The position numbers were made by a program, and so were the translations under genes. Under the pieces are notes generated by a model, which worked only from the letters and a program-made list of their open reading frames with translations, had not been told where the DNA came from and searched no databases. Positions 19,686 to 40,533 of a stretch of 64,000 bases of DNA are shown one piece after another. Each line of letters opens with the position of its first letter. Position 1 is the first letter of the stretch. Origin of the DNA: Nitrosopumilaceae archaeon (GTDB lineage Archaea; Thermoproteota; Nitrososphaeria; Nitrososphaerales; Nitrosopumilaceae); the NCBI GenBank assembly GCA_965209085.1, contig OZ242376.1:1088001-1152000 (forward strand), in the 5' to 3' direction.

Positions 19686-19698
19686 GCGGGCCCGAAGG
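19686..19698 (-). repeat. att site: duplicated 3' end of tRNA-Arg
   Basis: 13-bp exact match to 40458-40470. Confidence 0.85.
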
Positions 19699-19868
19699 AG
19701 CCCCCTATTTGCAAATGGCGGGTACCTGCAACATGTCAAAAGTTGGCAGAAATAGTGTCAAAAATCTGATCGCGTGTGCTTATTTTTCAAGTACATTTTT
19801 GCCATTTGATAGTATGCCTACAAACTTCCAGCCGTTTTGTATGAGTTTTTCAGCCTCGTTAGAATATA

Positions 19869-21167: not shown

Positions 21168-21225
21168 TTGTGTAATCTATACAATACACAAACCTTATTT
21201 AACTATTCCCATCTATGGATTACAC

Positions 21226-21501
21226 ATGACTGTGCATATAAGAGAGAGGGATGGTACAGAATATATCTATTTTTTGGCCGGAAAACGTCAGTTTTATCTG
21301 GGTCGCAAGGACGATTTAGAAAACATAAACCAGGATACTTTATTGAAAGCGGCCTCCGAGCTTGATAAAACATTTGACAAACACATGAAACGTTATGTCA
21401 AGAGCCTTTTGGAATGTGTTGCATTAATGGATAAAAAATATGCTGCAACGTATCTTGCTAAAAGAAGAACAGCTATTAACCAAAATTTACCTAAAATATA
21501 A
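21226..21501 (+). CDS. Small basic protein divergent from the integrase; possible DNA-binding or excision factor
   Basis: ATG 21226, 91 aa; HIRERDGTEYIY...FYLG resembles the SSV1 integrase N-terminal motif as I recall it. Confidence 0.6.
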   Translation: MTVHIRERDGTEYIYFLAGKRQFYLGRKDDLENINQDTLLKAASELDKTFDKHMKRYVKSLLECVALMDKKYAATYLAKRRTAINQNLPKI

Positions 21502-21621
21502 TGATGTTATAATATTTGATCAAATTCGGTGGTACAAAATGTTTATTCGTGCTATCTAACAATGAAGTACCAAATCATGTATAAAAGTCATTTTTAGTTT
21601 TTTGACATATGGGGTTATGAA

Positions 21622-21891
21622 TTATTTAGAACGATTTTGTAATAATGCAATTATTGATGAGGATCCAAGAAACATTAAAGATAATACATATAGTGCGAAT
21701 GTGGGTACCCACAGTTTTGGAGTTTTATCACATTCATTAAATTCAGTCCTGTTCATGGTATCAAAAATTGCATTACCCATACAACTATGTAGATTCAATG
21801 AATTAGGTACGTTTGATATAAAAACTATAATACCAAATAATAATCCACATACAAGTAATAAAACACAGAGTGTTGTCATTTTATCGGACAT
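21622..21891 (-). CDS. Small two-TM membrane protein
   Basis: Two hydrophobic helices flanking a loop with two Cys. Confidence 0.5.
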   Translation of the reverse strand: MSDKMTTLCVLLLVCGLLFGIIVFISNVPNSLNLHSCMGNAIFDTMNRTEFNECDKTPKLWVPTFALYVLSLMFLGSSSIIALLQNRSK

Positions 21892-22059
21892 GTATATATT
21901 TTCTAATTTTTTACATATAAATACGTTTTTGCATGGGTCATGTCACAACCTGGGGTAAAATTTGTAACACTTGGAGTGTTCTCCTTTTATGGAGCCCAAT
22001 CCACTTTACTGTACTTTCGTGTGTCAACATATTGAAATTATGTTAACGTTCTAAATTTA

Positions 22060-22359
22060 TTAAAAACTACCTAGTTTTCCGAGATTGTCATCTTGTGTGT
22101 TATTTGGATTTGTTTTAACATATTTGTGGCCGTTAACTTCATGAACAGATATGTCCTCACCTTTTTTCCATGCTCCATTTTTGTATATTGTTACAAATGT
22201 TTTTCCTTGTTCTAAATAGTGTATCAAATTTTGTCTACTTATTATTGTAGTAGCACGTGCGACACTGTCACCATCATTATCTACACGTGTAAGAACTGCA
22301 TTTATAATATCGTCTTTATATCTTACTGCAGATATTAAATAATCAGCCCATTTTACCAT
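22060..22359 (-). CDS. DUF3892-family protein
   Basis: KWADYLISAVRY N-terminus, G..FVT, YVKT..N....DNL..L..F C-terminus. Confidence 0.8.
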   Translation of the reverse strand: MVKWADYLISAVRYKDDIINAVLTRVDNDGDSVARATTIISRQNLIHYLEQGKTFVTIYKNGAWKKGEDISVHEVNGHKYVKTNPNNTQDDNLGKLGSF

Positions 22360-22413
22360 ATTAATATTTACATGTTATAGTATATAAATATAAATATGAT
22401 TATGTATGGTTCG

Positions 22414-23589
22414 TATAGCGCCAATCAAAAGTTCATGAGTATTTTTGGAGATTTTCTAAATATATAATCCACAATATTCAGATTGAATTTTACGGTCCTT
22501 AAATATTCAGACACCACATTCTGCATAATGGTAAACGTTGGACAATATTCGGATACCACCAATGCATATTTGTTAATCTTCCAGCACTGTTTGATCATGT
22601 TCAAATATGGTGATCCCTTTGGCAACAAAATTAATTTGACATTGGGATTGTCTGTTAGAAACTCTCTGACTTTATTTGATGTGTACCGAAGCGCGATCCA
22701 ACATTATTGCGATTTTTCCATATCTGTATTGCAACTCTTTCAAATATTTTACAAATGTTACAGAATTGAATTTTTTGTAAATTCTAAACATTTGATTCCC
22801 ATTCTCCAACATGGTTCCGTATACTGCAAAATTTTCATGTTTTCCAACATGTGGTAAAAATATTCGTTTTGCAACAAGTGACCAATATTTACGTCCTGCT
22901 TTTATATCTCTGACAAAGAACGCCTCATCCAACATTGCAATGGTAAATCCATTCTTTTTTAGGCGTGAAATTCTCTTTTTCATATATTGTTGCCAGTTGC
23001 ATACTGATGCAGCACTTGCATGATTTATGTGGTATTTCTGTGTAGTCTTGGCAGACATGCCATACTGATGCATGATCTTTCTAACATATGTAATATGCAA
23101 TTTTTCTCCAGTAACGTCATCTATTCTTTATTGTACCTACACAGGCGTTGCTATGGCAGATGTTATTTTGAGCATTAGACTTCATGCATAATGGGTCAAA
23201 TTCACAATTTTTACGAATAAAAATGACCAATTTGAACGATTATGCATACGGTCTATTATGGAACCCATTTATTTCTTTGAGACAATTCTTACTCGTCCAT
23301 TTTATGGGCGATCGCGGAGGCCATCAAGACCATCCGCATCAAAACGATCCACCCACATACGTACCCAATTCGGGCAATGTCGCAGCATATTTGCAATTTC
23401 TTGTACTTGTTTGCCATCTTTGCAAACCATGAGTATTGCAAGCATTCGTGTTGATGCTATACTGGAACGTTCTTTCTTGTACGCTTTTTCAAGTTGTTCT
23501 AATTTGTTCATGTGTATTGTAATAATTTGGAGATCCAAATACTTTTCGGTTCGATAAATTTATCTTATGAACTTTGGCGTGTGGCTATA
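22414..23589 (-). mobile_element. IS630-family element with fragmented transposase (23302-23538, 22672-23100, 22425-22628)
   Basis: IRs tatagcgccaatcaaaagttcat and tatagccacacgccaaagttcat (rc). Motifs GLDGLRDRP, LDE, LDRAS.H, LPKGSPYLN. Confidence 0.85.
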
Positions 23590-24206
23590 ACATTACTTCC
23601 AAATTGAACGTAATTTTCGTAATTTTTTTCGATCATACACAGATGCATCTAATTCACAGAGTATATTTTTTTGATTAGAATATTTATTTAAAAGTGCTAA
23701 AATTCTTAATATCGCAATTTGAGAGTATTTTTGCAATTTGGCAGTTATTTTCTCAAGATCATCGTCTTTCAGTTGATTTCGATCTTTTTTCCGATGTTCC
23801 ACACCATGTACAATTGAATTTCTTATTTGGTAAACATTTTTAGAGAATTTCCAAATTTCTAACATTTGATCATCATTATTACTTAATAATGCAGACATTC
23901 TATGCGCAATTTTTGTTGTGGTATCACCAGCACCAGTAGTAAGAAGAGATTCCAATGCTATCACATAATCCAATATTTTTTCCTTCTCATTATTATGATC
24001 GTGTGCCAAACCAAAACGCCTTAATGTATATAATATTGTTAATCGGTCATTTTCGAGTAATTTATTATAGATGTTTTTATAAAATAATTCAAGTTTTTTA
24101 ATTATTACAGGATTTAATTGGACTATATTAGATGTGGATTGTTTAATTGGTTCCCAACCAAAATTTTTTAATGTTCCAATATCCCAGATATCTGACATTC
24201 TAGAAT

Positions 24207-25463
24207 AGATGTCTTGCGTAATAAAAAATTCGGCATAACAATATATTGTGCCTAATAATTAAAGTGTTATGTTAAAAAATCACATTCTGGAATATGATTT
24301 ACAGTTAATCTAAGACAATACGCCACATGTCAATTATGTGATCACCGTTTGCAGTAATTCATGTTGGAACAATGTAGGTTTGCAAACCCACGCGACAACA
24401 TGTACATCTGGTCAATATCGGGCGTGCAGTATGATGTTATAATGAGCGTGCCCACTCATTTTTGTAATTTATTAATCCGTTTACAACCTGCACGATTCCA
24501 TCATATTTATCAAATCGTGATCGGAATACATCTCGGCGTATGTTGAATTTCTTAATTCTGCTGTAAACATGTTCTATCCGTACACGTACGCTTGAGAGTA
24601 ATTTATTGTGAAATATTTGTTCGCGGGTTCTCTTTTTATTTTTATATTTTTTACAGGGTATGATCGAATTTGCTTGTGGAAACGCGTCATGTATTCCCTG
24701 ATATGCACTATCATAGAGATTTGAAACAGAATTCAACAGATCCTGCGTAATTTTGTTTTCACACTGCAGTGGGTGGTTCTCTTTTACAATGGCATAATCG
24801 TGTACACTGCCAGGATATGACATTGAGCTATACAAGATCATTCCGTTTCCGTTTATGACTTCTGTTGTTTTTCTGGTATGTGTTTTGTGCTTGCCAGAAT
24901 AGTTTTTCTTTTGTTCTTCCTTGTCACTTGGACGCCATACCCGTTGTTCGGTAGCATCTGTAACGCAATAATTGTCAGGAAAATTCTTTTCAAGATCTTT
25001 GGAAGATTTTATTTCTAAAACTTGTTTGTGTAGTTTATGTGGAGTTGGAAGAATATCTGCCAATATCTTTAGAATCATGCCTATGTTTCGTTGTACATTA
25101 CTTTGATCCAAGTCAAACATGTATCCTATTTTTTCATACGACTGGTATTCTCGTAAATAAACAAGCGTCATTATTAACCGATCTGGCAGTGACAAGTGAT
25201 GTTTCCTGCCTCCTCCTGGACTTCGTTGTCTTTCTGCTGCATCTGCAACATCCAGCTGGCATTCAAGATATTTTTTACGTATGCCAGGAATCAAGGAATC
25301 AAATTCTTCGACCGTAAGACCGGTAAACGCCTTGAATGCACGCGGTTTTTTGCGCATTGTCGTTTCTGAGAACACAAAACACAGTAAACATGCATGAAAA
25401 TAGATCGATGTGATCTAAAAGTTTGGACTGCATGATTGAATTTCTTTATTACGCAAGGCATCT
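24207..25463 (-). mobile_element. IS5-family (ISL2-like, DDE_Tnp_4) insertion sequence
   Basis: IRs agatgtcttgcgtaataaa and agatgccttgcgtaataaa (rc); 3-bp target duplication AAT at 24204-24206 and 25464-25466. Confidence 0.9.
24437..25375 (-). CDS. IS5-family transposase, intact ORF
   Basis: FTGLT..EF, GGRK..L, DATEQ, GSVHD, DSAYQG, RVRIEH. Confidence 0.9.
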   Translation of the reverse strand: MFSETTMRKKPRAFKAFTGLTVEEFDSLIPGIRKKYLECQLDVADAAERQRSPGGGRKHHLSLPDRLIMTLVYLREYQSYEKIGYMFDLDQSNVQRNIGMILKILADILPTPHKLHKQVLEIKSSKDLEKNFPDNYCVTDATEQRVWRPSDKEEQKKNYSGKHKTHTRKTTEVINGNGMILYSSMSYPGSVHDYAIVKENHPLQCENKITQDLLNSVSNLYDSAYQGIHDAFPQANSIIPCKKYKNKKRTREQIFHNKLLSSVRVRIEHVYSRIKKFNIRRDVFRSRFDKYDGIVQVVNGLINYKNEWARSL

Positions 25464-26183
25464 AATATAGACCGCCAAATATAGGATCACCAGAATTAAA
25501 TAATTTAAGAGCACCTAAGATATGTTCAGTGTCTGGAATTATTTTTTTTTCAGTTCCGGGTATTCGTTTATGTTTACAGATCAAAACGCATTTTAAATTT
25601 AATTGGTAAGGAGGGATAGTATCCTGAGGTGATTTTTGTATATTTAATATGTAAGAATATTCCGCGTCAGTGATTTTACGAATCCATAAATTATCAGTTA
25701 ATATAATTTTTGTGAAATTGCCATCAACATTGTATATTGGTATCAAATAATATAATAATTCTACATCATATGTTATATAATTTACAAAATTAGAAATTGT
25801 GTCATGTAATAATTGTTTTGTGTTATTTTCACTGTTTTTTATCGCATATGATATAGCATAATCCAAATATGATTTGGCAGGTGTGGGGTTAGTTTTATAG
25901 TTGTTTTGAATCAGTAATGATTTGAGAACATCGTGTAGAACATCGTAAGAATTATTATTATCACCATCATACTGATTTTTAAGATCAATTCTTACATCAT
26001 GGTTAAGTTTAATATGATCAATTTGAGTTATCATATCCATGTTTAATAATTTTCCATTCAAATCTCTTAATGGTTTTTTTACAGATTTTTGATAATTTTG
26101 AGGATTTTGTTCTAATCTATTTTTACATATGTCTAATGTGTTTTCTAAAAAAGGTCTCATATGTTTTTCCAATGTTTTAGTGT

Positions 26184-27239
26184 TCATCGTTGTTCCGGCA
26201 TCGATCTAGTTAGGATTCCTAATTTATCATGCAGATATGTTGCTAAGTTTGAACCATTGGGTGTTCTTTTATTATCAATGATCACAATTCGAGGGTTTGC
26301 GCGCTTTACATATTCTATAAGATCTGTAAACTCCGCATGTTCGTCAGAAGCAATCCAAAATTTTTCATTTTTGTTTTGTGCGGTAAAATTTCCAAAACCA
26401 CCAGTTATTGATATTCTTCTCATGATGCCTTCATTTTCTTCAGAAGTATGTTGCATGGTATCTCTAAATTCTATTCTAGGATATCTCTCTTCCATCAAGT
26501 TTTCTGCATCAGGTGATTTAATATCCAACAGCCTTTCTTGTTGTACGGTACAATCATCTCTATTATTGTATATGTTTGTCATTCTAATGTTTGTGTCACT
26601 AGCAAGGAATTTTATTGTATTAGGAATATTGCTATTATTGGCAAGGCTACACATGACGTGTTGTAATTTTCCTCTATAAGCGTGAATGCATACGGACATT
26701 CCTTTGTTTATCGCTTCAACTACCCAATCGTTTAATCTACGTTCAAGACTTTCGCCGTCAATTTGTTTGTCAAAACGTATGTTACCATGTGTAGAATCAA
26801 TTACTAGTACGTCACATTCTGGTGCTTTATCTTGTGGAGAGATGTCGCCAGAATATACTATTTTGACATTATCATCGGTTTGGAGAAAAACTTGACCAGA
26901 CCCAAACATATGTTTAGATTCAAATAATGTAAGATAATCAGCACTTCCATTATGACGGATCGGTACAGATTGTCCAAAATCTAGTTGGTGAAGTTGTGTT
27001 CTTAGTTCATACGTATCGTTATTTATCGCTTCCAATAGCTTTGCGGTTACATGAGACATGAATACAGGATATTGATGCATACATCGTTCAAAGCTATTTT
27101 TAGCATGATCAACGTGAGGATGAGTAAAAACCGCGGCTTTGACCCCAGGTATAAATCCATCACAAACCACAGATTTTCCAAGTCTGATAGAACCATCGTC
27201 AGTCACACTAGCATATGAAAACAGATCATGGTCAGTCAT
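26184..27239 (-). CDS. Metallo-beta-lactamase / beta-CASP family nuclease
   Basis: THPHVDH, HMFGS, YSGD, VIDSTHG, SDEHAEF motifs. Confidence 0.85.
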   Translation of the reverse strand: MTDHDLFSYASVTDDGSIRLGKSVVCDGFIPGVKAAVFTHPHVDHAKNSFERCMHQYPVFMSHVTAKLLEAINNDTYELRTQLHQLDFGQSVPIRHNGSADYLTLFESKHMFGSGQVFLQTDDNVKIVYSGDISPQDKAPECDVLVIDSTHGNIRFDKQIDGESLERRLNDWVVEAINKGMSVCIHAYRGKLQHVMCSLANNSNIPNTIKFLASDTNIRMTNIYNNRDDCTVQQERLLDIKSPDAENLMEERYPRIEFRDTMQHTSEENEGIMRRISITGGFGNFTAQNKNEKFWIASDEHAEFTDLIEYVKRANPRIVIIDNKRTPNGSNLATYLHDKLGILTRSMPEQR

Positions 27240-27998
27240 TTAATCAACTACAGATTCTAACATATGATTTATGACATTTTTACGCAGTATGTTATGATAT
27301 GAAGAATATTCATTTATAGATGCATGTCCAATTTTGGTAAGTGATAGTCGAATATAATCATCAAACATATGAGAATTTTTTAATGACGTTGGCGGAAATT
27401 TTTTAGAGAGTAAAAATTTTGTAAAATCATGTAGGTTTTGTTTTTTATCAATAGATAATTTTTGTATTATTTTTACTAGTTCAGGATCAATACCGCTAAT
27501 GAATATGAAATGTTCAATGATATCAGTTCTTTTTATGTCTAGTTCATTTGAAATACATTCTTCAATAGATTTGTTAGGATTTCTTTTTTTCCATTGAATG
27601 ATACCTTTAATTTCAGTTTTGGTAATCGGGTGAGGCATAATCATAATAGCATTCACTGTTTTTAGTATATCATCTTTATTTTTCAAATATGTCAATCGAG
27701 TGGCTACGCTAAATCCAATAGATTCATTTGTTTTTGATACACCCCACATGATCATATCTTGTATTTCATCAGGTAATTCGAGTAATCTTAGAAATTGGTT
27801 CAACATATCTATAGACAATCTGAGTCTTTTTATCACTTCGTTTTTATCATTATTCATATCGTGCAACAAATTTTGAAGTTCTTTTGCAACTTCAACAGGT
27901 CGCAATGGCCTGTCAATGTAATCAACCTTTATGCTAGAAAGCAATTTTGCCAAACGTTGAGGATTACGTAATAATATCAGATCAGACATTTGTAGCAA
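27240..27998 (-). CDS. ParB-like HTH protein lacking the N-terminal ParB/Srx catalytic domain
   Basis: LRPVEVAKEL...LS..MLNQFLRLLELPDEIQDMI..G...FSVA matches the ParB central HTH pattern; no GxRR motif. Confidence 0.65.
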   Translation of the reverse strand: MLQMSDLILLRNPQRLAKLLSSIKVDYIDRPLRPVEVAKELQNLLHDMNNDKNEVIKRLRLSIDMLNQFLRLLELPDEIQDMIMWGVSKTNESIGFSVATRLTYLKNKDDILKTVNAIMIMPHPITKTEIKGIIQWKKRNPNKSIEECISNELDIKRTDIIEHFIFISGIDPELVKIIQKLSIDKKQNLHDFTKFLLSKKFPPTSLKNSHMFDDYIRLSLTKIGHASINEYSSYHNILRKNVINHMLESVVD

Positions 27999-28803
27999 TC
28001 AAACCTATACCAATTAGTTCTGACACAGCATTTTCGTTGGTATCAATTCCTTTTACGGTTTTGAATATTTCGATTTTTTCTATTTGATCTTCTGTTACGT
28101 CTATGTGCAATATGTTCGATTGTGTTCGTTTTTTTGCCTTTTCTACTGCTGCTATAGGGGTTATGCCAGGATTGCTATGTATTATGCCGCCTACTTTATT
28201 CTTTGCTCCAGTAGAAAGAGGTTTCATGGCAATCGCTGTTTCTATAAGCATTTTTGTATCAACGTCAGATTCATCCCCTCCTAGTGCATTAAGAGCTTTG
28301 AATGCGTTATCTTGAGTAATTGTTTTGTCATTGATAGCTTCTTGGACATCTTCGGGTAAGCTGTTTACAGCAATATATTTTCGAATGGTGCTTTCAGATA
28401 ATCCTAATTCTTCAGCTACGGATTTAACTGTACGATATTTTCTCATATACATATCTACAATATCAACATAATCAGCACGTTTCATTTCTTTGCGTGCGGT
28501 ATTTTCTCCAAGAGAGATACGTTTAGCTTCAAATTCATCAATTTCACGGGTTACATAACGTGCAGATATGGTAGACATGTTCAATATCTTGTGTACTTGA
28601 AGTCGTCTTTGACCTGCTACTAGCTCAAATTTTCCATCAGATAGTTTTTTGACGATAACTGGGCTAGTCATGCCATCTTTTCTTATGCTGTGAACCAAAT
28701 CATCATCAGATTTAACTATGGTGTCTCTTTGTCGTGCTTGAGAATTACCAAGTGTGACATTTTCCAAGGATACTTCTATTATCTCGGGAGATAGTAAGCT
28801 CAT
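27982..28803 (-). CDS. ParB/Srx-domain protein (N-terminal ParB domain, HTH, RHH-like C-terminus)
   Basis: LVHSI..DGM.SPVIV, LVAGQRRL, SLGEN.AR, VAEELGLSESTIRKY. Confidence 0.88.
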   Translation of the reverse strand: MSLLSPEIIEVSLENVTLGNSQARQRDTIVKSDDDLVHSIRKDGMTSPVIVKKLSDGKFELVAGQRRLQVHKILNMSTISARYVTREIDEFEAKRISLGENTARKEMKRADYVDIVDMYMRKYRTVKSVAEELGLSESTIRKYIAVNSLPEDVQEAINDKTITQDNAFKALNALGGDESDVDTKMLIETAIAMKPLSTGAKNKVGGIIHSNPGITPIAAVEKAKKRTQSNILHIDVTEDQIEKIEIFKTVKGIDTNENAVSELIGIGLIATNV

Positions 28804-28879
28804 ATGTGATAATTAATGCCATCATTAAATAATATATCGAAATGTTGTTTTTAACTAGGCGTGAATTTACCTTCTTTTT

Positions 28880-30037
28880 TTAGTCAAAACGTATATTTGA
28901 CAAATTTTTTACAGCGTTTAAGACATGTTTTATGAGATAATCTATCTCATCATCAGTGTTAAATCGCCCCATTCCAATTCTGATCGCCAAATGAGAATCT
29001 TCCTCACCCATCCCCAATGCAAGGAGTACGTGGGAGGGTTCGACGGATTGTGTAGTGCATGCAGAGCCGGCAGAAATTGCAATTTTTTTGTTGATAGTAT
29101 TGATTATAGCTTTTCCGTCAATTCCAGGAAAAATAACGTTGATGTTATGCAAGAGTCTGTTATTAGGAGGTCCATTTAATTTTGCTCCAAATTTTTGAAA
29201 TGATTTCATAATATTTTTAAACCATTTTCCAAATCTAATGTTTTCTTCATGCATCTCATTAATAGCAATTTCGATCGCTTTGCCAAATCCTACGATAGCT
29301 GGAACGTTAAGAGTTCCAGAACGCATATTCCGTTCTTGACCACCTCCACGTAGAATTGGATCTGGTTTAACTCTAGGTTTTATACCCCGTACATACAAAG
29401 CTCCAATTCCTTTAGGACCATACATTTTATGAGCTGAAAACGACATTAAGTCAATATTCATTGCTTGTACGTCAATTGGAATATGGCCTACAGCTTGGGC
29501 TGCATCTGTATGGAAAATAATATTCTTTTCGTGTGCTATTTTTCCAATTTTTTCGACATCGGCAATTGTTCCAATTTCATTATTGGCTGCCATGATAGAT
29601 ATCATTACAGTTTTATCTGTAATTGAATTTGATAATTCATTCAGATCTATTTCCCCGTATTTATTTACAGGTAAATACGTAATTTTTTTACTCAAAGTTT
29701 CCAAATATTTGGCAACATCTAATATTGCATCATGTTCAGTAACACAAGTAATTAGATGATTTCCACGGTCGGCATATTTTTGCATGGTTCCTACTAATGC
29801 CAGATTATTTGATTCTGTTGCGCCACTGGTAAATATAATTTCATCATATTGTGCGCCAATTGATTTTGCAATTTTCTCTCGTGCAGATTTTACAGCTATA
29901 GATGCTTCATTTCCAAAAGAGTGATCTGTGCTAGACGCATTGCCAAATTTTGTTGTAAAATAAGGCATCATTTCTTCCAATACACGGTTATCCAAAGGTG
30001 TAGTTGCATGATGGTCAAGGTATATTGGAAACTTCAT
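28880..30037 (-). CDS. dndA: Cysteine desulfurase of the phosphorothioation cluster
   Basis: YLDHHATTP, FTSGATESNN, SAHKMYGPKG (PLP Lys), SAGSAC (catalytic Cys); overlaps the dndE stop. Confidence 0.88.
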   Translation of the reverse strand: MKFPIYLDHHATTPLDNRVLEEMMPYFTTKFGNASSTDHSFGNEASIAVKSAREKIAKSIGAQYDEIIFTSGATESNNLALVGTMQKYADRGNHLITCVTEHDAILDVAKYLETLSKKITYLPVNKYGEIDLNELSNSITDKTVMISIMAANNEIGTIADVEKIGKIAHEKNIIFHTDAAQAVGHIPIDVQAMNIDLMSFSAHKMYGPKGIGALYVRGIKPRVKPDPILRGGGQERNMRSGTLNVPAIVGFGKAIEIAINEMHEENIRFGKWFKNIMKSFQKFGAKLNGPPNNRLLHNINVIFPGIDGKAIINTINKKIAISAGSACTTQSVEPSHVLLALGMGEEDSHLAIRIGMGRFNTDDEIDYLIKHVLNAVKNLSNIRFD

Positions 30038-30429
30038 GTTTGTACTGCTCTTTCTTGCTGGATAACATAAGCAAAATCAGATATTTTATGTATTCTTGCA
30101 AATAATGCTATTGCTCCACGATTAAAATGAGCCCGGACCATTTTATTTAAATATTTTTGTGGATCTAACCCTTCACGTTTTAATCTTTGAACCATTAATG
30201 CCATAAATACATCTTCGTATTCTCCAAACATGACAGATGGATGTATTTCAGAACCTTTTTCATCAAATTCTTCTGGATTTGGAGGGGATGGATCATTAAG
30301 TGACATACATATTGCAAATCTACCAACAATATTTGGAGTAAGACCAGTTCTTGATTTAATCTGGGCAAGTAGGTTTTGTGAACGATAGCTCATTCGTAAT
30401 CTGTTAAACCGTAACAATTTTTTCTCCAT
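30034..30429 (-). CDS. dndE: DNA sulfur modification protein DndE
   Basis: RLRMS....L..IK.RTGL.PN...RFA.C.SL, H..RG pattern; position between dndD and dndA. Start set at ATG 30429. Confidence 0.85.
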   Translation of the reverse strand: MEKKLLRFNRLRMSYRSQNLLAQIKSRTGLTPNIVGRFAICMSLNDPSPPNPEEFDEKGSEIHPSVMFGEYEDVFMALMVQRLKREGLDPQKYLNKMVRAHFNRGAIALFARIHKISDFAYVIQQERAVQT

Positions 30430-32440
30430 CGTTATTCCAGAAATAGCCTTCATATCCTTTCGTAGAACCCTCATCTTCTGAATATTTTATGATGTAGGAT
30501 CTTGTCATGTATGGTTTTAATTTTTTATAATATTGATGTTTTATTTCTTCATCGGTTGAAAATATCAAAATTTGATGTGACACGATGGGAAAGAATGTTT
30601 CAACTAGATTATTTCGGTGATTGCTGTCTAGCCTAGCAAGAGGCGTGTCGATCATAAATGGTAAAGGTCTCCCAGAAGTTTTAGCGAGTGCCCAAAGTAC
30701 AGCAGTTGCAAGCATTTGTTTTTCTCCTTCTGATAAAAGATCCCTTGGAAAAGGTTCACCATTTTTTCGGAATAATTGAATTTCAAATGTTTGTGGATTG
30801 ATTTTTGTATTTATAAAATCGTTTTTGTGCATTAATGTTTGAAGTCCTTCTAATAGATATTCTTCAAGTAGATGAATTTTCCTTACAGTTATTTTTTCAA
30901 CAAATTCCTCTAAAACTTTTTGGACATTTTGTGTTAATTTTACACCATGCTTTGTTTTTTCTGTTTTGTAAATCTTAGAAACAATGTCTCTAAGTTTTGA
31001 ATCTAAATGTTGGCGTAAGGCTTTGTTAGTGGTAATTTGTTCTTCAATATGATCAATTTCAGATTGTAATGCTCCTTGTTCGGAACGTGTATTACCAAGT
31101 TTAGACATCAATGGACCGATTTCGTCGTCTGCAGGAGCACTGGCAATTGTCATCTGAAGTTTTTCAATGTCACCATCAACCTGAATTATTTTATCTGTAT
31201 CTTTGTTTAAAATCGAGTGAGTTACAGTATTAGCTTTTTTAGCAATATCCAAAATTCTCATCATTTGTTTTGTTGAAAATCCAAATATGAGTTTTTTAGA
31301 ATTAACAGAATGTTGTATATGATCTTTAAATATTTTATTCAATGTTGCCATCATGTTAGACGCTGATTTTGAGTCAATGCCAGCATCTCGCCATAATTTT
31401 TGTTCATTAATCTGATTTTTGAGTATATCAATTTTTGATTCCATTATTGTCCGGCCAAATTGTTCCTGTTGGATAGATTCATCAATTTCCAAATGTTTTA
31501 CCAATATTTTCATTTCGTTAGGAATTAAAGTAAATGGAAGTACGTCATCACATAAATTATGAATTCTTTGTCGTATGCTTTCACGGATAATTTCTTTTTT
31601 AGCTAATTTTGCTTTTAATTCATCCCTATTACTAACAAAGTCTCCACCAATTTTTGATATTTGTGTTTCAAGCATGTCTATGTCCATGTTTAATGAATCC
31701 ATGTTTGTTTGTTTTTGGGCAAGGCGTTCTTGTAATTTTATAGTTATCTGAATGCTGTCATCCTTTTCACTCTTGAATTTATCAAATTCTTGTTGCAAAT
31801 ATTTAGTACCTTTAATGAGATTACGCATTAGGTTTACTTGCAGATCTGTATTTAATTGTTCAATTATATCTATGCCCAAAAGAGATTTGAATGATTCTTT
31901 AATTGTGAGATTTTCTGAGCCTTCTTTAGCAATATTCACAATTTTTTCTCCATCAAAAAAGAATAGTTTGATTATTCCCTTTGGAATTAGATCTTCAATA
32001 AATGATTGCCGGTTTGATCTTTCAATAGTTTCAATTGGTACGAACTTATTATTTTGATCTTTTTTCTTTATGTCAAAATGTTCTTCAATGTCTCCATCTG
32101 TTTTTCTCCAAGATCGTTCGATGCTATATTCTGTTTCTTTTCCCATGTGGAAAAATTTGAATTTAACTGTAATTGATGCATGATCTGCGGATGTTGAACT
32201 TTTTAAATATCTGTGGATTTTACGTGCAAGGAATTTTTTGTATGTATTATTAGTGCAGTGTTTATCCATGATCAATATTCCATAAAGACACAGCGTAACG
32301 GATTCAAATAATGTTGTCTTCCCGGCACCATTTTCTCCCCCTATGATGATTATGGGTTTGTCTGGAGAACATGTGAAATCAAACGTGTTTTTACCTTTGT
32401 ATACACTATAATCTTGTAATGTTATTTCAGTTAACAACAA
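30404..32440 (-). CDS. dndD: DNA sulfur modification protein DndD (SMC-like ATPase)
   Basis: GENGAGKTT, LFFFDGEKI, long coiled coil, LSEGEKQ, IDTPLARLD, STD.EI. Likely TTG start near 32440. Confidence 0.92.
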   Translation of the reverse strand: MLLTEITLQDYSVYKGKNTFDFTCSPDKPIIIIGGENGAGKTTLFESVTLCLYGILIMDKHCTNNTYKKFLARKIHRYLKSSTSADHASITVKFKFFHMGKETEYSIERSWRKTDGDIEEHFDIKKKDQNNKFVPIETIERSNRQSFIEDLIPKGIIKLFFFDGEKIVNIAKEGSENLTIKESFKSLLGIDIIEQLNTDLQVNLMRNLIKGTKYLQQEFDKFKSEKDDSIQITIKLQERLAQKQTNMDSLNMDIDMLETQISKIGGDFVSNRDELKAKLAKKEIIRESIRQRIHNLCDDVLPFTLIPNEMKILVKHLEIDESIQQEQFGRTIMESKIDILKNQINEQKLWRDAGIDSKSASNMMATLNKIFKDHIQHSVNSKKLIFGFSTKQMMRILDIAKKANTVTHSILNKDTDKIIQVDGDIEKLQMTIASAPADDEIGPLMSKLGNTRSEQGALQSEIDHIEEQITTNKALRQHLDSKLRDIVSKIYKTEKTKHGVKLTQNVQKVLEEFVEKITVRKIHLLEEYLLEGLQTLMHKNDFINTKINPQTFEIQLFRKNGEPFPRDLLSEGEKQMLATAVLWALAKTSGRPLPFMIDTPLARLDSNHRNNLVETFFPIVSHQILIFSTDEEIKHQYYKKLKPYMTRSYIIKYSEDEGSTKGYEGYFWNNDGEKIVTV

Positions 32441-32441
32441 A

Positions 32442-33950
32442 TTATCCACCAAATTCCTTTTTTGATGTTTTTTGTTTCTCAAGATCGTTTACGATCTCGT
32501 CTAAATCATCTCGCCATTCTTCTCCGAGTATTTTATTTATCCTGGGATAAATTTTAGAGTGTTGAGTCATTCCTTGAGATTCACGGGCTACGTTTAGCAG
32601 TTTTGATACTAATAATTGGGGTACGTCGTTTTTAGCACAAATTTCTTCTAGTACATCTTGTTCAATTACACCAAATTCGCCTAGGTCTTCCTGAGGAAGG
32701 ATCAGTTTATCTCCAATTATTTTTCCATATATGGAATATGCGGAATTTTTCCAATCCCCTCGTTCCACTCGCCAGATCCTTTGAATTTCATGAATTTCAG
32801 ATTCCAGAATTAATGTTATGTGTGGGTCCGGACCAGTATTTTGTATTTCCTTTTGAACTCGCAGTAATTTTTCCAAGAATTCTTTACAAAATTCCATAGT
32901 ATATGGACCAGGAACTAACATAGAATAAGGATCATCTTTGTTGTTTTCGCCTCTTTTCTTTAATTCCATCTTGGATTCTTGGATTCTTTCGTCAAATGCT
33001 TTTTTACGGGCATCGTCAACAAGTTTCATTTGGCCGGTTCTGCGTTTGAGTGAACGTACTTGTTTTCGTTTTACTGGGTTTTGTGTTTCTTTGAGTTCTG
33101 CACGCAGTTCTAACAGTGGCTGCATCCAATCCTCACCATTATCAATCATGTTTTTCATAGAAGTGTCTTTTTCTACCACAGTACAGACCCAGCAGCCAAA
33201 TCTGCTGTTGCCACATGAGGGTGTACTAGAATCCACTACCAACGGACATTCAGATGAATTGGCATCCTGATACATGGATAACAAATCACGATTGTTGGTA
33301 CCCCATGGATTTTTGTTCTGTAGTAAATAGTCCCAGACATCACTTGTGATAAAATCTCTCAATGGAGTATATACATAAGTCTGAGAGAATTTAGAATGTC
33401 TTGACAGATAGCTATTTTCTATTTCATACAGATTCATCAGCTGGTTTCTTGATCCTGATTCATCCTTGCGTGTTCCAAGAACTACAATTGCTTCTCCGTA
33501 TTCAGATACTTTTTCTTGGATAAACCTATCTGCATTTCTTATCTTTAAACGATCTGTGCACCATCTAAACAGATTACTTGGAGCTGGAAATCCTTTGCCC
33601 AGCAAACATACCCAAAACGAGTCTTCGACTTTTGGACGGATCAAATTAGTAGATATTGGAAGATTTGATTTTTTCCCATATTTTTCCATTTGATCAAGAG
33701 AATTAGTAATAGCTTCGACTACTTTTGGTGATTCAACCAACGTATCAGAAGATATGATAAATATTTTTTTTTGTAGTTTTTTTGGAGGTAATTTTGACAG
33801 TGCATTCCAAATTAGCTGGGTCATACACGTAGAATCTTTACCGCCACTAAATCCCAATATCCATGGTCTGTTATCATTTAGGTAAACTTCTTGTATTTCA
33901 GCATAGATGTCTTTCAAACTATGGGATTTGAAGACAGAAGGTTCTGGCAT
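32442..33950 (-). CDS. dndC: DNA phosphorothioation sulfurtransferase DndC (PAPS-reductase fold, Fe-S)
   Basis: PWILGFSGGKDS, DTLVE, RWCTDRLKI, ECPLVVD..TPSCGNSRFGCWVC. Confidence 0.95.
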   Translation of the reverse strand: MPEPSVFKSHSLKDIYAEIQEVYLNDNRPWILGFSGGKDSTCMTQLIWNALSKLPPKKLQKKIFIISSDTLVESPKVVEAITNSLDQMEKYGKKSNLPISTNLIRPKVEDSFWVCLLGKGFPAPSNLFRWCTDRLKIRNADRFIQEKVSEYGEAIVVLGTRKDESGSRNQLMNLYEIENSYLSRHSKFSQTYVYTPLRDFITSDVWDYLLQNKNPWGTNNRDLLSMYQDANSSECPLVVDSSTPSCGNSRFGCWVCTVVEKDTSMKNMIDNGEDWMQPLLELRAELKETQNPVKRKQVRSLKRRTGQMKLVDDARKKAFDERIQESKMELKKRGENNKDDPYSMLVPGPYTMEFCKEFLEKLLRVQKEIQNTGPDPHITLILESEIHEIQRIWRVERGDWKNSAYSIYGKIIGDKLILPQEDLGEFGVIEQDVLEEICAKNDVPQLLVSKLLNVARESQGMTQHSKIYPRINKILGEEWRDDLDEIVNDLEKQKTSKKEFGG

Positions 33951-33952
33951 GA

Positions 33953-35002
33953 TCAGGCGCCACCATCCACAGTATCTGGGACACCTAGTTGTTTTAATAT
34001 CTCATTTGCGGCTCTTTTTATTCCTAGTCGATTTTTCAACATTTTTTTATCCATTACTACTTTATCCTGCCATCTTGGGCTAGTTTTTTTCCAATTTATG
34101 TTTTGCAATCCTTTGAGTTTTCTTCGCCAGTCATTATGTTGTAATAAAACGTATCCCACCAATCCAAGGGCATTTAGCACGTTCGTGTGCGCATGTACAT
34201 AATCTTTTCGTAATTCATATGGACTGATTTTTTTTGCCAGCAATAAATTCCATTCGGGTATGTTTTTGGACACATTGTCCCAATAATCTCTAGCAATTTT
34301 TTGTTTTTCAGCAGATACAGATTTTGTTTTTAGTCTCAAGAGATGTCTTGTGGCATCTGCGATACCGTTTAATGTAAAAAATGCTGTAGATCTATTTGAT
34401 ATGTTTGTTCTTTCTTTTTCAGTTCTGCCATAAAAAATTTCCAAATCATCTGCAAGGCTAACTATGAACTGAGCGTATTCATTACGATGATCATATAGCA
34501 ATCCAAGAGATTTTGTAGGTTTTATTGCATGTTTGTTCAAATCAGCAAACATTTGCTGACTTCGTTTTAATCCTCTATCTTCATAAACTACTACGGATAT
34601 ATTTTCACTATAAAAATCATCTTTTTCGCATACTGATCTAATTGCAGCACATCTGTGTTGACCATCATTTATCAAAATAGGAGCATCGTGAGGTATGATG
34701 AGGCTGCCACATTTTCCGTCAGAGCCACGTCCGGGTGCAGGGATAAATTGCATTTTTTTACCAACAGAGATAGTAATTGATGAGAAAATATAGTTTTTAG
34801 GATGATCTTTTATATAACATACAATTTTTGGAATACGGGAATTTCGGATTTTTCGCTGTGCTTTTAATTCAGGATCTATCCTTGGATCTTCTTCATATCG
34901 AAATTTATCCTTAACCGTAGCAAAGGGGCACATTATTATGTAGAATTCTCGTTTTGCTTGAACGCCTCTCACGGCATCAAATGTTAATCCCTCCATCCCC
35001 AT
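33953..35002 (-). CDS. dndB: DndB (DGQHR-domain regulator)
   Basis: RG.QA.REFY, AQR, INDGQHR, SQQMFADLN..A..P..SL..LYDHR. Confidence 0.92.
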   Translation of the reverse strand: MGMEGLTFDAVRGVQAKREFYIIMCPFATVKDKFRYEEDPRIDPELKAQRKIRNSRIPKIVCYIKDHPKNYIFSSITISVGKKMQFIPAPGRGSDGKCGSLIIPHDAPILINDGQHRCAAIRSVCEKDDFYSENISVVVYEDRGLKRSQQMFADLNKHAIKPTKSLGLLYDHRNEYAQFIVSLADDLEIFYGRTEKERTNISNRSTAFFTLNGIADATRHLLRLKTKSVSAEKQKIARDYWDNVSKNIPEWNLLLAKKISPYELRKDYVHAHTNVLNALGLVGYVLLQHNDWRRKLKGLQNINWKKTSPRWQDKVVMDKKMLKNRLGIKRAANEILKQLGVPDTVDGGA

Positions 35003-35209
35003 TTCTCGCTATCTCCTGTAATTTAGCGATCAATACATAATTTAAGTCTAGATTAAAACGTGCTTCCAATTACAATGGAAGCTTATTCTAAAATAATTAA
35101 AATAACTAGATTTTCTCACAATCTAATCTTTTGTGCATGATATTAGTTATAAATAATAATCCTAGGCATGCCCATAATCTCCCAAAAATTACTGTTTTTT
35201 ACTAGTAAA

Positions 35210-35377
35210 TCAGAGAGATTTTTCGAGTATTTTTAGATCAGATTTAGTGAGTTTGACCGTAAAGATATTTGCCTTTGGATGCTTTACTCCAGGAGTCAAT
35301 GGGTGAAATACTATTTTTATTCCATTTCCGTCCTTGGTAATATCTACCGGACGTCCACCAATCTTTGCTTCGACCAT
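35210..35377 (-). CDS. 55-aa small basic protein, below the ORF-track cut-off
   Basis: ATG 35377 to TGA 35210: MVEAKIGGRPVDITKDGNGIKIVFHPLTPGVKHPKANIFTVKLTKSDLKILEKSL; fills the gap between co-directional genes. Confidence 0.65.
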   Translation of the reverse strand: MVEAKIGGRPVDITKDGNGIKIVFHPLTPGVKHPKANIFTVKLTKSDLKILEKSL

Positions 35378-35543
35378 GCATAGTGGCAATATTCGTTGAA
35401 TATAGAGTTATTGTAATAACAGTGTTGAATTAACCATCATACAAATTATACCATATAAAGGACATGATGGAAAAATAGAAAAATCTAAAATGCGTAACAG
35501 TTGCAGCATATATGCCATGAAGACAATATTAGTTGAAATCACT

Positions 35544-37307
35544 TTAAATTTTGTCAATCAATTGTTTCGCGATTTCATTAATTCTATCATCGCCTACACA
35601 ATATTCAGAGTTTCTTATTAAACAATATTTGCTATCAAAAACAGGTACATCCTCATACGTTTTATCGGATATAGAATCCATAATTTTATCATTGTTGTAT
35701 TTTTTATAGTGAATGCTAACTAACCACATAATGTACGGATGTTTATTTTTAGCAAGAGGATAAAGCCCATCATCGGACAGTTTTTTTGAACAGGGAAAAT
35801 GTTTAGCGCGAACGTTAATGTCAGATGGCAATGGTGAGAGATTAACTATTTGATTCATTTCATCAATTATGTCTTGAGATTTACTTTTTTTAGGTATCAT
35901 GTGATCTAAGTTCCACATTGAGCTTTTGTTACCATACATAATTGGTTTAAAGTTAATTACATCAGCATTTCTGTCAGGTAATAAACACGCATTAAAAATT
36001 CTCCGAATGGCATCAGAATTAGACTTTTGTATATTTATTTTCAGCCATTCTTTATTTGGAGACGATTTTATATTATCTAGTTTTACATCGTTATTTATAG
36101 AATCTACCAAATCAGTAAGAATATTTCCAGATAAATTATTACACATGAATTTTTTAGCATGTTTGTCAAGTCGTGTAAGGCTATTATCTATAACCCGACG
36201 GTAAAATACACGTAATAATAGATGTAATTCTTTGGTACTGTCATAATCCCCATCCATGAAATCAGGAATTTTGTTATCAAGGTGGACATATTTATAATAA
36301 TACCAGAAAACTATTGTGATAGGTAATTCACCACATTGAAATATTTCATATAAATATGGATTGAGCAGGATATTATTTTCATCTTCTTTGGTTAATGCAG
36401 AATCAAAATCTTCAATAAATTTCAATAGATCATCAACGTCTTCACTTTTTAAATTATCCCAATTTTTAAACACCAACGTTGGTTTAGTTTTTATTGAATC
36501 ATAGAGATATTTTCCAAGTCTCTTGGACCATTTATTATCTTTGGATTGAAATACATTTGTGAATCTATTTTCAAACTCAGTGATATCATCATCATACCAT
36601 TTTTTTTTTTCAGCTTGTTGAATGATTAAAGAGCGTAATAAATCAACTTGTGATAGATCTAATCCTGTAGAATTCAGGTTGATGAATGTGTGGATAAGTT
36701 CAGATTCATCTTTAAAATCAAAATATGGATCAAGTGCAATTTGTTTTTTTACAAACATTTTAGAAATTTTTTCAGAGAATTCCAGGGCATTTTCATTAAA
36801 TTCCTTGTCAAATAATCTATTCACGCTATTTTTTAATCGAATGTAACTTTCTTGTATGCCCATCCTAGGATAGGATGAAAGTATTCTGTCATTATGCTGA
36901 AATATTGATCGTTTGGCCGCTACTTCAGCTTTTAGTATTGTAAATTTATGTTCAAGATCTTGCCTATCGGGTTCGTTACTTAATACAATCGGATATAGGT
37001 AATTCAACATTGCAGTTGCCAAAGCAAATCGCTGCAATCCATCTAATAGTATGGTAGCTTTATCATCTTTACTTGATGCAAGTATGACAGTACCGAATAA
37101 TATCGCATCGGATCCTATGAATTCTTTAATTTCGTTGTCTTTCCAGACGATATTTCTCTGATAGCTTGGAATTAATATCGGTTCAGGATCTAGTTCTTTG
37201 ACCAGGTCAGACCAATCTTTAATGGGATCATTTTTATTTTTGCATAGTGCGTATTTTACAGCATATTGCCAAAATGGAGGAAGCTCGCCCAATCGCTTTA
37301 TAGTCAT
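35544..37307 (-). CDS. DUF262 (DGQQR-type) + C-terminal HNH-like (DUF1524-like) protein; GmrSD/SspE-like nuclease
   Basis: IPSYQR..VW, LLDGLQR, F.NLN.TG..L...DL (DUF262); C-terminal LDHMIP...NL.PL...IN. Confidence 0.8.
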   Translation of the reverse strand: MTIKRLGELPPFWQYAVKYALCKNKNDPIKDWSDLVKELDPEPILIPSYQRNIVWKDNEIKEFIGSDAILFGTVILASSKDDKATILLDGLQRFALATAMLNYLYPIVLSNEPDRQDLEHKFTILKAEVAAKRSIFQHNDRILSSYPRMGIQESYIRLKNSVNRLFDKEFNENALEFSEKISKMFVKKQIALDPYFDFKDESELIHTFINLNSTGLDLSQVDLLRSLIIQQAEKKKWYDDDITEFENRFTNVFQSKDNKWSKRLGKYLYDSIKTKPTLVFKNWDNLKSEDVDDLLKFIEDFDSALTKEDENNILLNPYLYEIFQCGELPITIVFWYYYKYVHLDNKIPDFMDGDYDSTKELHLLLRVFYRRVIDNSLTRLDKHAKKFMCNNLSGNILTDLVDSINNDVKLDNIKSSPNKEWLKINIQKSNSDAIRRIFNACLLPDRNADVINFKPIMYGNKSSMWNLDHMIPKKSKSQDIIDEMNQIVNLSPLPSDINVRAKHFPCSKKLSDDGLYPLAKNKHPYIMWLVSIHYKKYNNDKIMDSISDKTYEDVPVFDSKYCLIRNSEYCVGDDRINEIAKQLIDKI

Positions 37308-37354
37308 GATTTATCATACATCAATTTGTTAAATAAGGTTATCATCTATTTTAT

Positions 37355-37437
37355 AGTATGAGGTCACGTCATGCCTAGAATTTATGCAATAAATGAAGAT
37401 GTAGGCACAAAATAGCACGAGGTGCTGACCTCATACT
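37355..37437. mobile_element. 83-bp MITE-like element with IS66-like ends
   Basis: Perfect 12-bp terminal IR agtatgaggtca/tgacctcatact, identical to the left end of the element at 4741. Confidence 0.65.
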
Positions 37438-37555
37438 GTTTTGGATTTTATTCACGGGTAGAGCCGCATCTAATGATAGATTTTTAAACGAATTGATGCT
37501 TACATGCATAATTTAATAATAAATATTATATAATAACAAAATTATAATACAATTA

Positions 37556-40322: not shown

Positions 40323-40458
40323 GAAAAAAAGAGATGTAGGGGCTTTGAAGGTGCCCCAATAACCCTCATCGTTGTTTACAAAGGCACGGATCTTATTCTG
40401 ATCGCATATTTCTGCCAAAATCATGCGACATGTACAGGGTTCTGCTATTTACAAAAGG

Positions 40459-40533
40459 CGGGCCCGAAGGGCTTCGATCCCTCGACCTAACACTCCGCAA
40501 GCGTTCGCACTATCCATGCTATGCAACGAGCCC
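40459..40533 (-). tRNA. tRNA-Arg (anticodon GCG)
   Basis: rc = GGGCTCG TT GCAT AGCATGGATAG TGC G AACGC TTGCGGA GTGTT AGGTC GAGGG ATCGAAG CCCTT CGGGCCC G; canonical cloverleaf, no intron. Confidence 0.92.

Follow-up and report, generated by a model that had tools for sequence, protein, structure and literature searches.

The window analysed here is a stretch of 64,000 nucleotides (nt) from a Nitrosopumilaceae archaeon (GenBank assembly GCA_965209085.1, contig OZ242376.1, positions 1,088,001 to 1,152,000), whose genome is a single contig of 1.69 Mb. It carries dndBCDEA, the genes for phosphorothioate (PT) modification of DNA, and behind them a run of four genes for two ParB-like proteins (ParB1 and ParB2), a metallo-beta-lactamase (MBL) protein and a HEPN protein. 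This run, hereafter the module, and its relationship to the modification genes are our subject. Read along the minus strand, the order is a DUF262/GmrSD_N gene, dndB, dndC, dndD, dndE, dndA, a 76-nt spacer, ParB1, ParB2, MBL and HEPN. The dnd genes and the module comprise the following features, with positions in the window, lengths in amino acids (aa) and E-values after model names:

33953..35002, minus strand: dndB, DGQHR ParB-superfamily regulator (Pfam DndB 1.8e-108; PADLOC DndB 4.6e-117; TIGR03233 343.9 bits, cut-off 328)
32442..33950, minus strand: dndC, sulfurtransferase of the PAPS-reductase fold (PADLOC DndC 1.2e-182; TIGR03183 1e-154)
30404..32482, minus strand: dndD, SMC-like ABC ATPase (PADLOC DndD 9.7e-179; TIGR03185 6.3e-139)
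30034..30474, minus strand: dndE (Pfam DndE 2.3e-23; PADLOC 1.6e-42)
28880..30037, minus strand: dndA, cysteine desulfurase (PADLOC DndA 1.3e-159, SspA 1.2e-157; Aminotran_5 3.5e-87)
28804..28879, minus strand: 76-nt spacer; some 30-37 nt ahead of the ParB1 start it contains a TATA-like box rich in A and T
27982..28803, minus strand: ParB1, a ParB nucleoside triphosphatase (NTPase) domain of the cytidine triphosphatase (CTPase) fold, a ParB helix-turn-helix (HTH) and a short C-terminal tail resembling a ribbon-helix-helix (RHH)
27240..27998, minus strand: ParB2, a ParB DNA-binding domain lacking the NTPase domain, with a C-terminal tandem RHH
26184..27239, minus strand: MBL, 351 aa, predicted beta-CASP metallo-beta-lactamase nuclease
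25462..26187, minus strand: HEPN 5' piece, 241 aa, N-terminal domain, aligning to residues 1 to ~270 of intact homologues of 436-459 aa
24188..25482, minus strand: IS5-family insertion sequence, inverted-repeat arms included, with its transposase at 24437-25375 (DDE_Tnp_4 1.4e-21, HTH_Tnp_4, NF033581)
23593..24198, minus strand: HEPN 3' piece, 201 aa, HEPN domain with R-x4-H (IRNSIVHG), aligning to the C-terminal ~175 aa of homologues

An original prediction, made from the letters of this DNA, had described nine co-directional genes here, and all of them do lie on the minus strand at the positions it gave. The gene identities it proposed stand, but the ninth gene, HEPN, is split by an insertion sequence (IS), leaving nine genes and one transposase. 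The tight junctions that it described are also as found: dndB and dndC are 2 nt apart and dndE overlaps dndA by 4 nt, a 76-nt gap follows dndA, and downstream of the gap ParB1 overlaps ParB2 by 17 nt, ParB2 abuts MBL (0 nt) and MBL overlaps HEPN by 4 nt. Its gene list omitted the DUF262/GmrSD_N protein upstream of dndB, a kind of protein that is common beside dnd in Nitrosopumilaceae.

Gene identities were drawn from three libraries, Pfam, PADLOC and NCBIfam, and this annotation, which the prediction had proposed as a check, identified the dnd genes. PADLOC matched DndB, DndC, DndD, DndE and DndA at E-values from 1e-42 to 1e-182; in NCBIfam the first four exceed their cut-offs, while DndA falls below that of TIGR03235 (403.9 against 480) and looks IscS/NifS-like. 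With DndA counted as a DndA/IscS cysteine desulfurase, five of the five DndABCDE proteins are present. The claim that neither of the usual partners, DndFGH or PbeABCD, accompanies them also held: no PADLOC model of DndFGH, Pbe or Ssp matches any of the four downstream genes, nor does that of any other system fit them at a meaningful level. More widely, PADLOC gave no match to DndF, DndG or DndH at E<=0.01 among the 16 open reading frames (ORFs) of window 19869-38809, and none to PbeA or PbeD near dnd (ORFs below 60 aa, the size of PbeB, fell outside the scan); DndD alone cross-matches PbeC models. The DUF262 plus DUF1524 combination of SspE/GmrSD was likewise absent from the four module genes in both Pfam and PADLOC.

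The module proteins and their operon

ParB1 has the sequence features of the ParB/Noc/KorB clamps, namely a ParB_N fold with the Box II GxxR motif and a ParB HTH. Pfam recognises both domains (ParB_N 6e-12, HTH_ParB 6.3e-6), NCBIfam places the protein over the cut-off of TIGR00180 (81.8 against 58.45 bits), and a family profile built from 22 members finds Noc as its best PDB match (2.9e-24), followed by Spo0J, ParB and KorB (to 1.6e-8). Box II, the phosphate motif defined as GxxR in PMC12704722, reads G64-Q-R-R67 (GQRR); it is invariant in the 22 aligned ParB1 proteins, and 38 of 42 ParB1 ORFs of the modules have it. Nucleotide specificity is described in the same source as not predictable from sequence. 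The last ~45 residues look like a single RHH, judging by their sequence pattern. A search of PHROGs returned generic ParB matches only, with ParB1 matching phage ParB-like PHROGs at 1.3e-23.

ParB2 is matched in Pfam by HTH_ParB alone (1.2e-7), and its architecture emerges from an AlphaFold model (predicted local distance difference test, pLDDT, 92.2). Compared by VIA, residues 2-143 resemble Spo0J (Z 10.6, root-mean-square deviation (rmsd) 3.0 over 110 aa) and the ParB-parS complex (Z 10.3), and residues 162-252 resemble single-chain Arc (Z 7.3), chain E of the F relaxosome (Z 7.2), AvtR (Z 6.9) and DndE (Z 5.4). A ParB2 profile run against 1.84 billion metagenome proteins retrieved 1,039 cluster representatives (at 50% identity), 92 of them at E<=1e-30, and ten clusters sampled from these were all without a name.

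The MBL protein scores just below the 27-bit cut-off of Pfam Lactamase_B_2 (8.6e-6, 25.9 bits), and its assignment to the beta-CASP family comes from its residues, which include MBL motifs 1-4 and beta-CASP motifs A (D/E), B (H) and C (H or V). Alignment of 27 homologues shows conservation of an Asp, the HxHxDH motif, H110, D132, D148, H186 and H301, and HxHxDH is present in 41 of 43 module MBLs; motifs A to C were assigned by order along the sequence, with definitions taken from PMC7458816. A profile of the family matches the archaeal aCPSF1 PH1404 in the PDB at 7.9e-15, FttA, Cas14 at 1e-8, CPSF73 at 7e-7 and SNM1A at 6.5e-5, and the best NCBIfam match is TIGR04122, a ligase-associated DNA-damage-response exonuclease, at 1.3e-11 and far below its cut-off. 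Motif C is a His, as in CPSF73, which by itself does not discriminate between DNA and RNA as substrate; a V-to-H change in SNM1A left activity and selectivity unaltered, as reported in PMC7458816.

The HEPN gene is in two pieces because of the IS5-family element. The element ends in 41-nt imperfect inverted repeats (24188-24228 and 25442-25482), the stop codon of the 5' piece falls at its end, and against intact homologues the two pieces line up one after the other, a mere four or so residues being absent between them. Sequencing depth marks the element as multi-copy. Of the contigs from four DNA runs compared with the window, those of two runs end at the borders of the element, and not one spans it. 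The HEPN gene is evidently inactivated here by the insertion.

Its family assignment rests on intact homologues, in which the R and H of R-x4-H are nearly invariant and the C-terminal region is predicted to adopt a four-helix HEPN fold; together these are the R-x4-6-H motif and fold that characterise the superfamily. In a model of one such homologue (pLDDT 85.4), residues ~300-426 find HEPN structures as the top VIA matches, with Z of 8.9, 8.2, 8.0, 7.9 and 7.8 (4nqf_B at Z 8.9, rmsd 3.4 over 116 aa; 2hsb at Z 8.2; the sacsin HEPN domain at Z 8.0). Values of 7-8.9 are common among helical bundles, so that the fold match alone is moderate evidence. It was found by VIA only: the whole model gave no Foldseek match in the PDB at E<=0.001, the family profile found none among PDB sequences, and none of four intact homologues matched a Pfam HEPN model, HEPN_Apea included. 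The N-terminal ~300 residues showed no clear match. The 3' piece has a weak PADLOC match to CARF_HEPN (4e-4).

The original prediction joined all of these genes into one extended dnd operon. The adjacency and shared direction on which that rested are real, but a promoter of its own is very likely for the module, which elsewhere lies in all three orientations relative to dnd, and we regard it as a separate operon because of the A/T box in the 76-nt spacer and this variable orientation. Many related loci have a comparable T/A box ~30 nt upstream of ParB1, making a promoter of the module's own in the spacer probable. A sigma-70 promoter scan did not rise above shuffled sequence, the model being unsuited to archaea, and no terminator-like hairpin with a T-run occurs within the 76 nt, and transcription reading through from dndA into the module is possible in this genome. 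Restriction and modification units are commonly separate, so that a separate operon does not refute a coupling between the two.

Pairing with dnd and other modification genes

The proposal that homologues of the downstream genes would be linked to dnd was borne out. With one genome taken for each species, a pattern scan returned 13 loci, nine of which hold ParB2 and MBL together and eight ParB1 as well (L010, a 2.9-kb contig, shows only ParB2-MBL). A full dnd cluster lies within 10 kb in five of the nine, and a sixth (L008) starts inside dndA at the contig end; the four distant MBLs, from Jordarchaeia and Bathyarchaeia, stand alone among housekeeping genes and were used as an outgroup. Across 401 Nitrosopumilaceae genomes, a profile of the MBL family then matched strongly (E<=1e-30) at 26 places, spread over 23 genomes, the other 146 genomes with profile matches having only a weak match to a housekeeping MBL of ~420-450 aa. 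Twenty of the 26 places are within 10 kb of dndC, and the remaining six comprise a contig starting in dndA, a copy inside an ssp cluster, two solitary copies and two contigs shorter than 4 kb. Overall dndC occurs in 63 of the 401 genomes and in 21 of the 23 with a strong MBL, while 42 of the 63 dndC-positive genomes are without the module. The census genomes are relatives and their counts not independent, and four unpublished genomes enter the tallies only. Module and dnd also occur together on metagenome contigs at 25% MBL identity, and linkage of the two is well supported by comparative genomics.

Two small contigs of the pattern scan, L006 and L010 (3.9 and 2.9 kb), are filed as Rubritalea sp. 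and Alphaproteobacteria bacterium, and could be mis-binned or true bacterial copies.

The pairing has been remade many times, because the MBL and DndC trees disagree. Among the 22 loci holding both proteins, the MBL tree has three starred clades and one unresolved set, the DndC tree three starred clades and one weak pair, and the two are joined in nine combinations. In L002 and L028, for example, DndC is near-identical while the MBLs are parted by branches supported at 100/99 and 100/100. Between MBL and DndC, pairwise identities show a weak correlation of 0.33 (Pearson) and 0.26 (Spearman), with one of 5000 Mantel permutations as high. Different genomes show the module running in the direction of dnd, converging on it or diverging from it. 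Repeated re-pairing of this kind is, in our view, the strongest argument that the two are functionally paired.

One genome, G298, carries two complete dnd clusters in tandem within ~30 kb (L015/L016, G298:C1:1648000-1683999), each with ParB1-ParB2-MBL-HEPN, and the two sets belong to different DndC and MBL clades.

What is conserved across these loci is narrower than the four-gene module of the original prediction. ParB1-ParB2-MBL forms the invariant core and does behave as a conserved unit, but HEPN is one of several exchangeable add-ons, alongside a SNF2 helicase and Mrr_N/DUF7669 proteins, and the one in the window is broken. By our count ParB2 and MBL stand together 44 times, -35 to +12 nt apart, and in 42 of these cases a ParB1 is adjacent (L008/L032 and L035/L036 being counted twice); HEPN follows MBL in 19 of the listed loci, the same duplicates and three fragments included. 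A SNF2 helicase of ~587 aa and a conserved protein of ~265 aa precede ParB1 in nine loci of two MBL clades. One of these clades is without HEPN, and several of its loci have in its stead proteins that combine a ParB HTH with DUF7669, some with Mrr_N besides. Additional beta-CASP genes occur in L008, L017, L019 and L073. Decay is also seen outside the window: the HEPN gene of L020 is in two pieces, ParB1 of L018 is in pieces beside an IS, and L074 has a stop in ParB2 and no MBL.

More distant relatives extend the range of partners. On metagenome contigs L038-L041 (~25% MBL identity), ParB1-ParB2-MBL is followed by a SNF2 helicase and converges on dndEDCB; in one of them an AGGAGG precedes ParB1, suggesting that the contig is probably bacterial. 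A nine-contig clade is without dnd, and where its contigs are long enough (L044, L046, L048) Dam and Dcm methylases stand beside the module, in the order unknown gene, SNF2, ParB_N protein, ParB1, ParB2, MBL, S1-domain protein, Dam, Dcm. In L026 (G302:C1:1842000-1861999) the module lies between sspA-sspB-sspC and sspD, and in G523, a 99% complete genome of another family of the phylum, dndC is absent and the module adjoins a ParB_N-N6/N4 methylase fusion (L073). Because relatives pair with ssp or with methyltransferases, one of them in a genome without dndC, we take the module to be linked to modification but not specifically to PT. The PT-linked system that the original prediction proposed thus keeps its frequent dnd partner, but relatives beside ssp, Dam plus Dcm and a ParB-methylase fusion widen the link to DNA modification in general.

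The predicted role as an alternative effector module can be set against dnd clusters that lack the module. Eighteen of the 42 dndC-positive genomes without it were sampled, mostly on long contigs, with 45 of 199 neighbouring ORFs passed through PADLOC and two loci left unsubmitted. Pbe components were present in nine of the 18 loci, DUF262 proteins of the HEC-06/Orf5 type in six and a pair of MORC-like ATPase and helicase in one (L056). That module-less clusters often carry PbeABCD parts or DUF262 nucleases supports the idea of an alternative, although its HEPN, single-operon and PT-specific parts do not stand as proposed. One module-positive dnd locus, L005, also has a probable PbeA/PbeC pair.

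In L056 the ATPase (HATPase_c_3, MzaB-like, ~580-600 aa) and the ResIII helicase (~535-545 aa) come directly after dndA, and the same pair is found near ParB modules in L022 and L026, which may make it a further candidate for a dnd-associated system. Downstream of the module in L026 are the MORC-like HATPase, the helicase and a weak DrmC-like gene.

Known systems and competing explanations

DndCDEA-PbeABCD offers the closest parallel in layout, being a four-gene cassette that stands beside archaeal dnd in place of DndFGH and beside methyltransferases where dnd is absent (PMC6459918). Its correlation with DndCD evolution is weak, 0.107 in that source, while MBL against DndC gives 0.33 here. The proteins themselves are of other kinds altogether: Pbe is made up of a PLD-helicase, an SMC-like ATPase and two proteins of 66 and 152 aa, no Pbe model matches any of the four window genes, and Pbe is described in PMC6459918 as not cleaving viral DNA, whereas the module encodes two predicted nucleases. 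DndFGH and the DUF262 nucleases SspE/GmrSD are also PT restriction partners, in which NTPase domains of the ParB superfamily (DUF262) sense DNA; ParB1, however, sits in the Noc/Spo0J/KorB clamp branch and not in the DUF262/DGQHR branch, and no match to DndF, DndG, DndH or SspE was found. Like ParB, Noc and KorB, ParB1 has an N-terminal NTPase fold with GxxR, a ParB HTH and a C-terminal tail; unlike them its gene is in every case accompanied by those for a paralogue with the HTH alone and for a beta-CASP nuclease, and the module has neither a ParA partner nor a recognisable parS. DISARM, Dpd and Zorya are modification-linked systems that combine a SNF2 helicase (DrmD, DpdE and ZorD) with a nuclease. 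The sister modules likewise sit beside modification genes, and their SNF2 helicase matches the models of DpdE, ZorD and DrmD (1e-57 to 1e-22), but the helicase alone is common to them: the window's own clade has none, and the PADLOC models of those systems lack a ParB1-ParB2-beta-CASP core. The module HEPN is like ApeA-type proteins in its length of ~450 aa and in its layout, with a sensor-like domain at the N-terminus and, at the C-terminus, a HEPN domain bearing R-x4-H, and its nearest named ESM-Atlas clusters are ApeA-like (scores 0.86-0.89, leads only); it differs in that four intact homologues have no HEPN_Apea match and that hhalign against the ApeA-like protein of the window gives a probability of 0.1, which is not significant.

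Our literature search found no account of ParB and beta-CASP proteins forming a module, whether beside dnd or in a defence role, though the supplementary neighbour tables of PMC10853773 may list such genes, and the thaumarchaeal papers it found note the dnd genes only. The passages of PMC10853773 on nucleases near dnd name HKD, HNH, REase, URI, HEPN and PIN, and hold no mention of MBL or of a ParB other than DndB. A family MBL profile found no relatives in viral contigs, and a search of 72,556 plasmids and 50,697 phages with the distant L044 MBL, not the window's own, gave no match.

On balance we think it rather probable that ParB1-ParB2-MBL, with HEPN as an add-on that is IS-broken here, is a self-contained operon encoding an undescribed, modification-linked defence module of restriction type, partnered with DndBCDEA in this genome. 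This reading is favoured by the domains identified, by catalytic and NTP motifs that are intact, by the close packing of the operon and by the repeated pairing with modification genes, and its defensive character is supported because the add-ons (SNF2 helicase, HEPN, Mrr_N and extra beta-CASP proteins) are typical defence parts. In such a system, ParB1 would act as an NTP-gated DNA clamp of ParB type that dimerises by its C-terminal tail, loads on DNA and scans it. ParB2, with its ParB DNA-binding domain and DndE-like tandem RHH but no NTPase, would be a second DNA-reading head coupling the clamp to the beta-CASP nuclease. Host DNA marked by Dnd would be spared and unmarked incoming DNA cut, with a SNF2 translocase helping in the sister versions and the HEPN RNase serving as a back-up effector of the abortive-infection type. 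A more specific mechanism, which we put forward tentatively and consider doubtful as yet, is restriction by a nucleotide-gated sliding clamp of ParB type: PT or base marks would set whether the clamp is released or stalls, a stall would license the ParB2-bound beta-CASP nuclease, and SNF2 or HEPN would form an exchangeable arm.

Several observations weigh against the defence reading and temper it. The closest solved relatives of the MBL protein (aCPSF1, FttA, Cas14 and CPSF73) are RNases, which makes DNA cleavage by it uncertain. The module stands away from dnd in L004, L022 and the dndC-less G523, and because such copies exist it is able to function, or at any rate to survive, in the absence of PT. 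Islands are in any case where defence genes gather, and these shared islands, together with the kinship of the genomes, mean that the counts overstate independence. ParB1 passes a generic partition-protein model (TIGR00180), no shared parS-like palindrome or 10-mer occurs across nine close loci, and with its HEPN gene broken the system may work less well in this genome, if at all.

The rival that deserves most attention, though we judge it unlikely, is an independent defence system that shares islands with dnd and reads neither PT nor any other modification. A probable promoter of its own, occurrence in every orientation, the solitary copies L004 and L022 and the copy in a dndC-less genome all suit such independence, as does the presence of other stand-alone defence genes in the window's island (an ApeA-like HEPN protein matching PDC-S58 at 6.3e-40, and the DUF262 protein). 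This rival fits poorly, however, with an adjacency that is usually immediate and has been re-created in nine clade combinations, with the presence of dndC in 21 of the 23 genomes that hold the module, compared with 63 of all 401, and with the neighbours of copies away from dnd, which in three cases are another modification set (ssp, Dam plus Dcm, or the ParB-methylase fusion). That the module serves PT metabolism in an accessory role and not defence, processing damaged or nicked PT sites or regulating where Dnd acts, strikes us as improbable: the DNA-damage-response exonuclease that is the best NCBIfam match of MBL (far below cut-off) and the weak resemblance of the ParB2 tail to the DndE tandem RHH (Z 5.4) hint at it, yet relatives are linked to methylases and not to PT, the HEPN, SNF2 and Mrr_N add-ons are parts of conflict systems, and 42 of 63 dndC-positive genomes do without the module. 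Least credible is a ParB-type partition or addiction cassette that maintains a plasmid or the integrated element carrying dnd. The TIGR00180 and PHROGs matches of ParB1 would fit it, as would the low-GC island with its integrase-like gene and short tRNA-Arg-derived repeats, but there is no ParA, the plasmid, phage and viral-contig searches described above were empty, every complete locus has the nuclease as an obligate partner, and archaea generally lack chromosomal ParABS according to PMC12704722.

Should the sliding-clamp mechanism hold, a ParB CTPase clamp would for the first time be seen to distinguish the cell's own DNA from foreign DNA, and the module would be a fourth or fifth independent solution to PT restriction, serving PT, Ssp-type PT and methylation alike. 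On the defence reading more generally, a clamp of ParB type would be combined in one machine with a beta-CASP nuclease and a reader built on a tandem RHH. PT modification is widespread, and many dnd clusters have no known restriction partner. All eight genes of DndABCDE plus DndFGH were found together in only 7% of taxa in PMC10853773. The module's core of ~2.6 kb would make a small, clean system for studying how backbone marks are read. Ammonia-oxidising archaea matter worldwide as nitrifiers, little is known of how they resist viruses, and the module would account for ~1/3 of their dnd clusters (21 of 63 dndC-positive genomes).

The surrounding island

The G+C content drops from ~0.42-0.46 to 0.27-0.37 at about 21-40 kb of the window. 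A 13-nt exact repeat, GCGGGCCCGAAGG, with an adjoining 16/18 match, copies the 3' end and flank of tRNA-Arg(GCG) (40457-40533). The two sites, 19686-19725 and 40441-40470, bracket the low-GC region, and an integrase-like gene (19869-21167, minus strand) adjoins. These tRNA-Arg-derived repeats and the integrase-like gene hint, weakly, at an integrated element of about 20.8 kb.

Upstream of dndB, outside the ParB module, lies the gene that the original prediction missed:

35544..37307, minus strand: DUF262/GmrSD_N protein, 587 aa (Pfam GmrSD_N 7e-18; weak PADLOC matches to HEC-06, 1.4e-7, and Orf5, 3.5e-7)

Homologues stand beside dndB in L028 (48% identical) and 3' of MBL in L010 (54% identical), and by its profile matches the protein is a distant member of the HEC-06/Orf5 class of dnd neighbours. 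Its C-terminal part has a 'DH..P...N...N' stretch that by eye we take to be HNH-like, and the protein is possibly a second PT-associated nuclease. At 37556-38809 on the plus strand is the ApeA-like HEPN protein (Pfam HEPN_Apea 1.4e-13, PADLOC PDC-S58 6.3e-40), a candidate for a separate defence gene in the same island.

Two short elements, at 23173-23255 and 37356-37437, have a depth 10-18 times that of their surroundings in two DNA runs, which marks them as multi-copy and resembling miniature inverted-repeat transposable elements. That they are one element was rejected since they are not copies of one another; the first is a palindrome with 38-nt arms. Outside the island, a single ORF of 7,698 aa (40852-63948, minus strand) spans the last 23 kb of the window, and a tRNA-Arg(TCT) called at 6117-6207 on the plus strand is, at 91 nt, long for a tRNA and may contain an intron.

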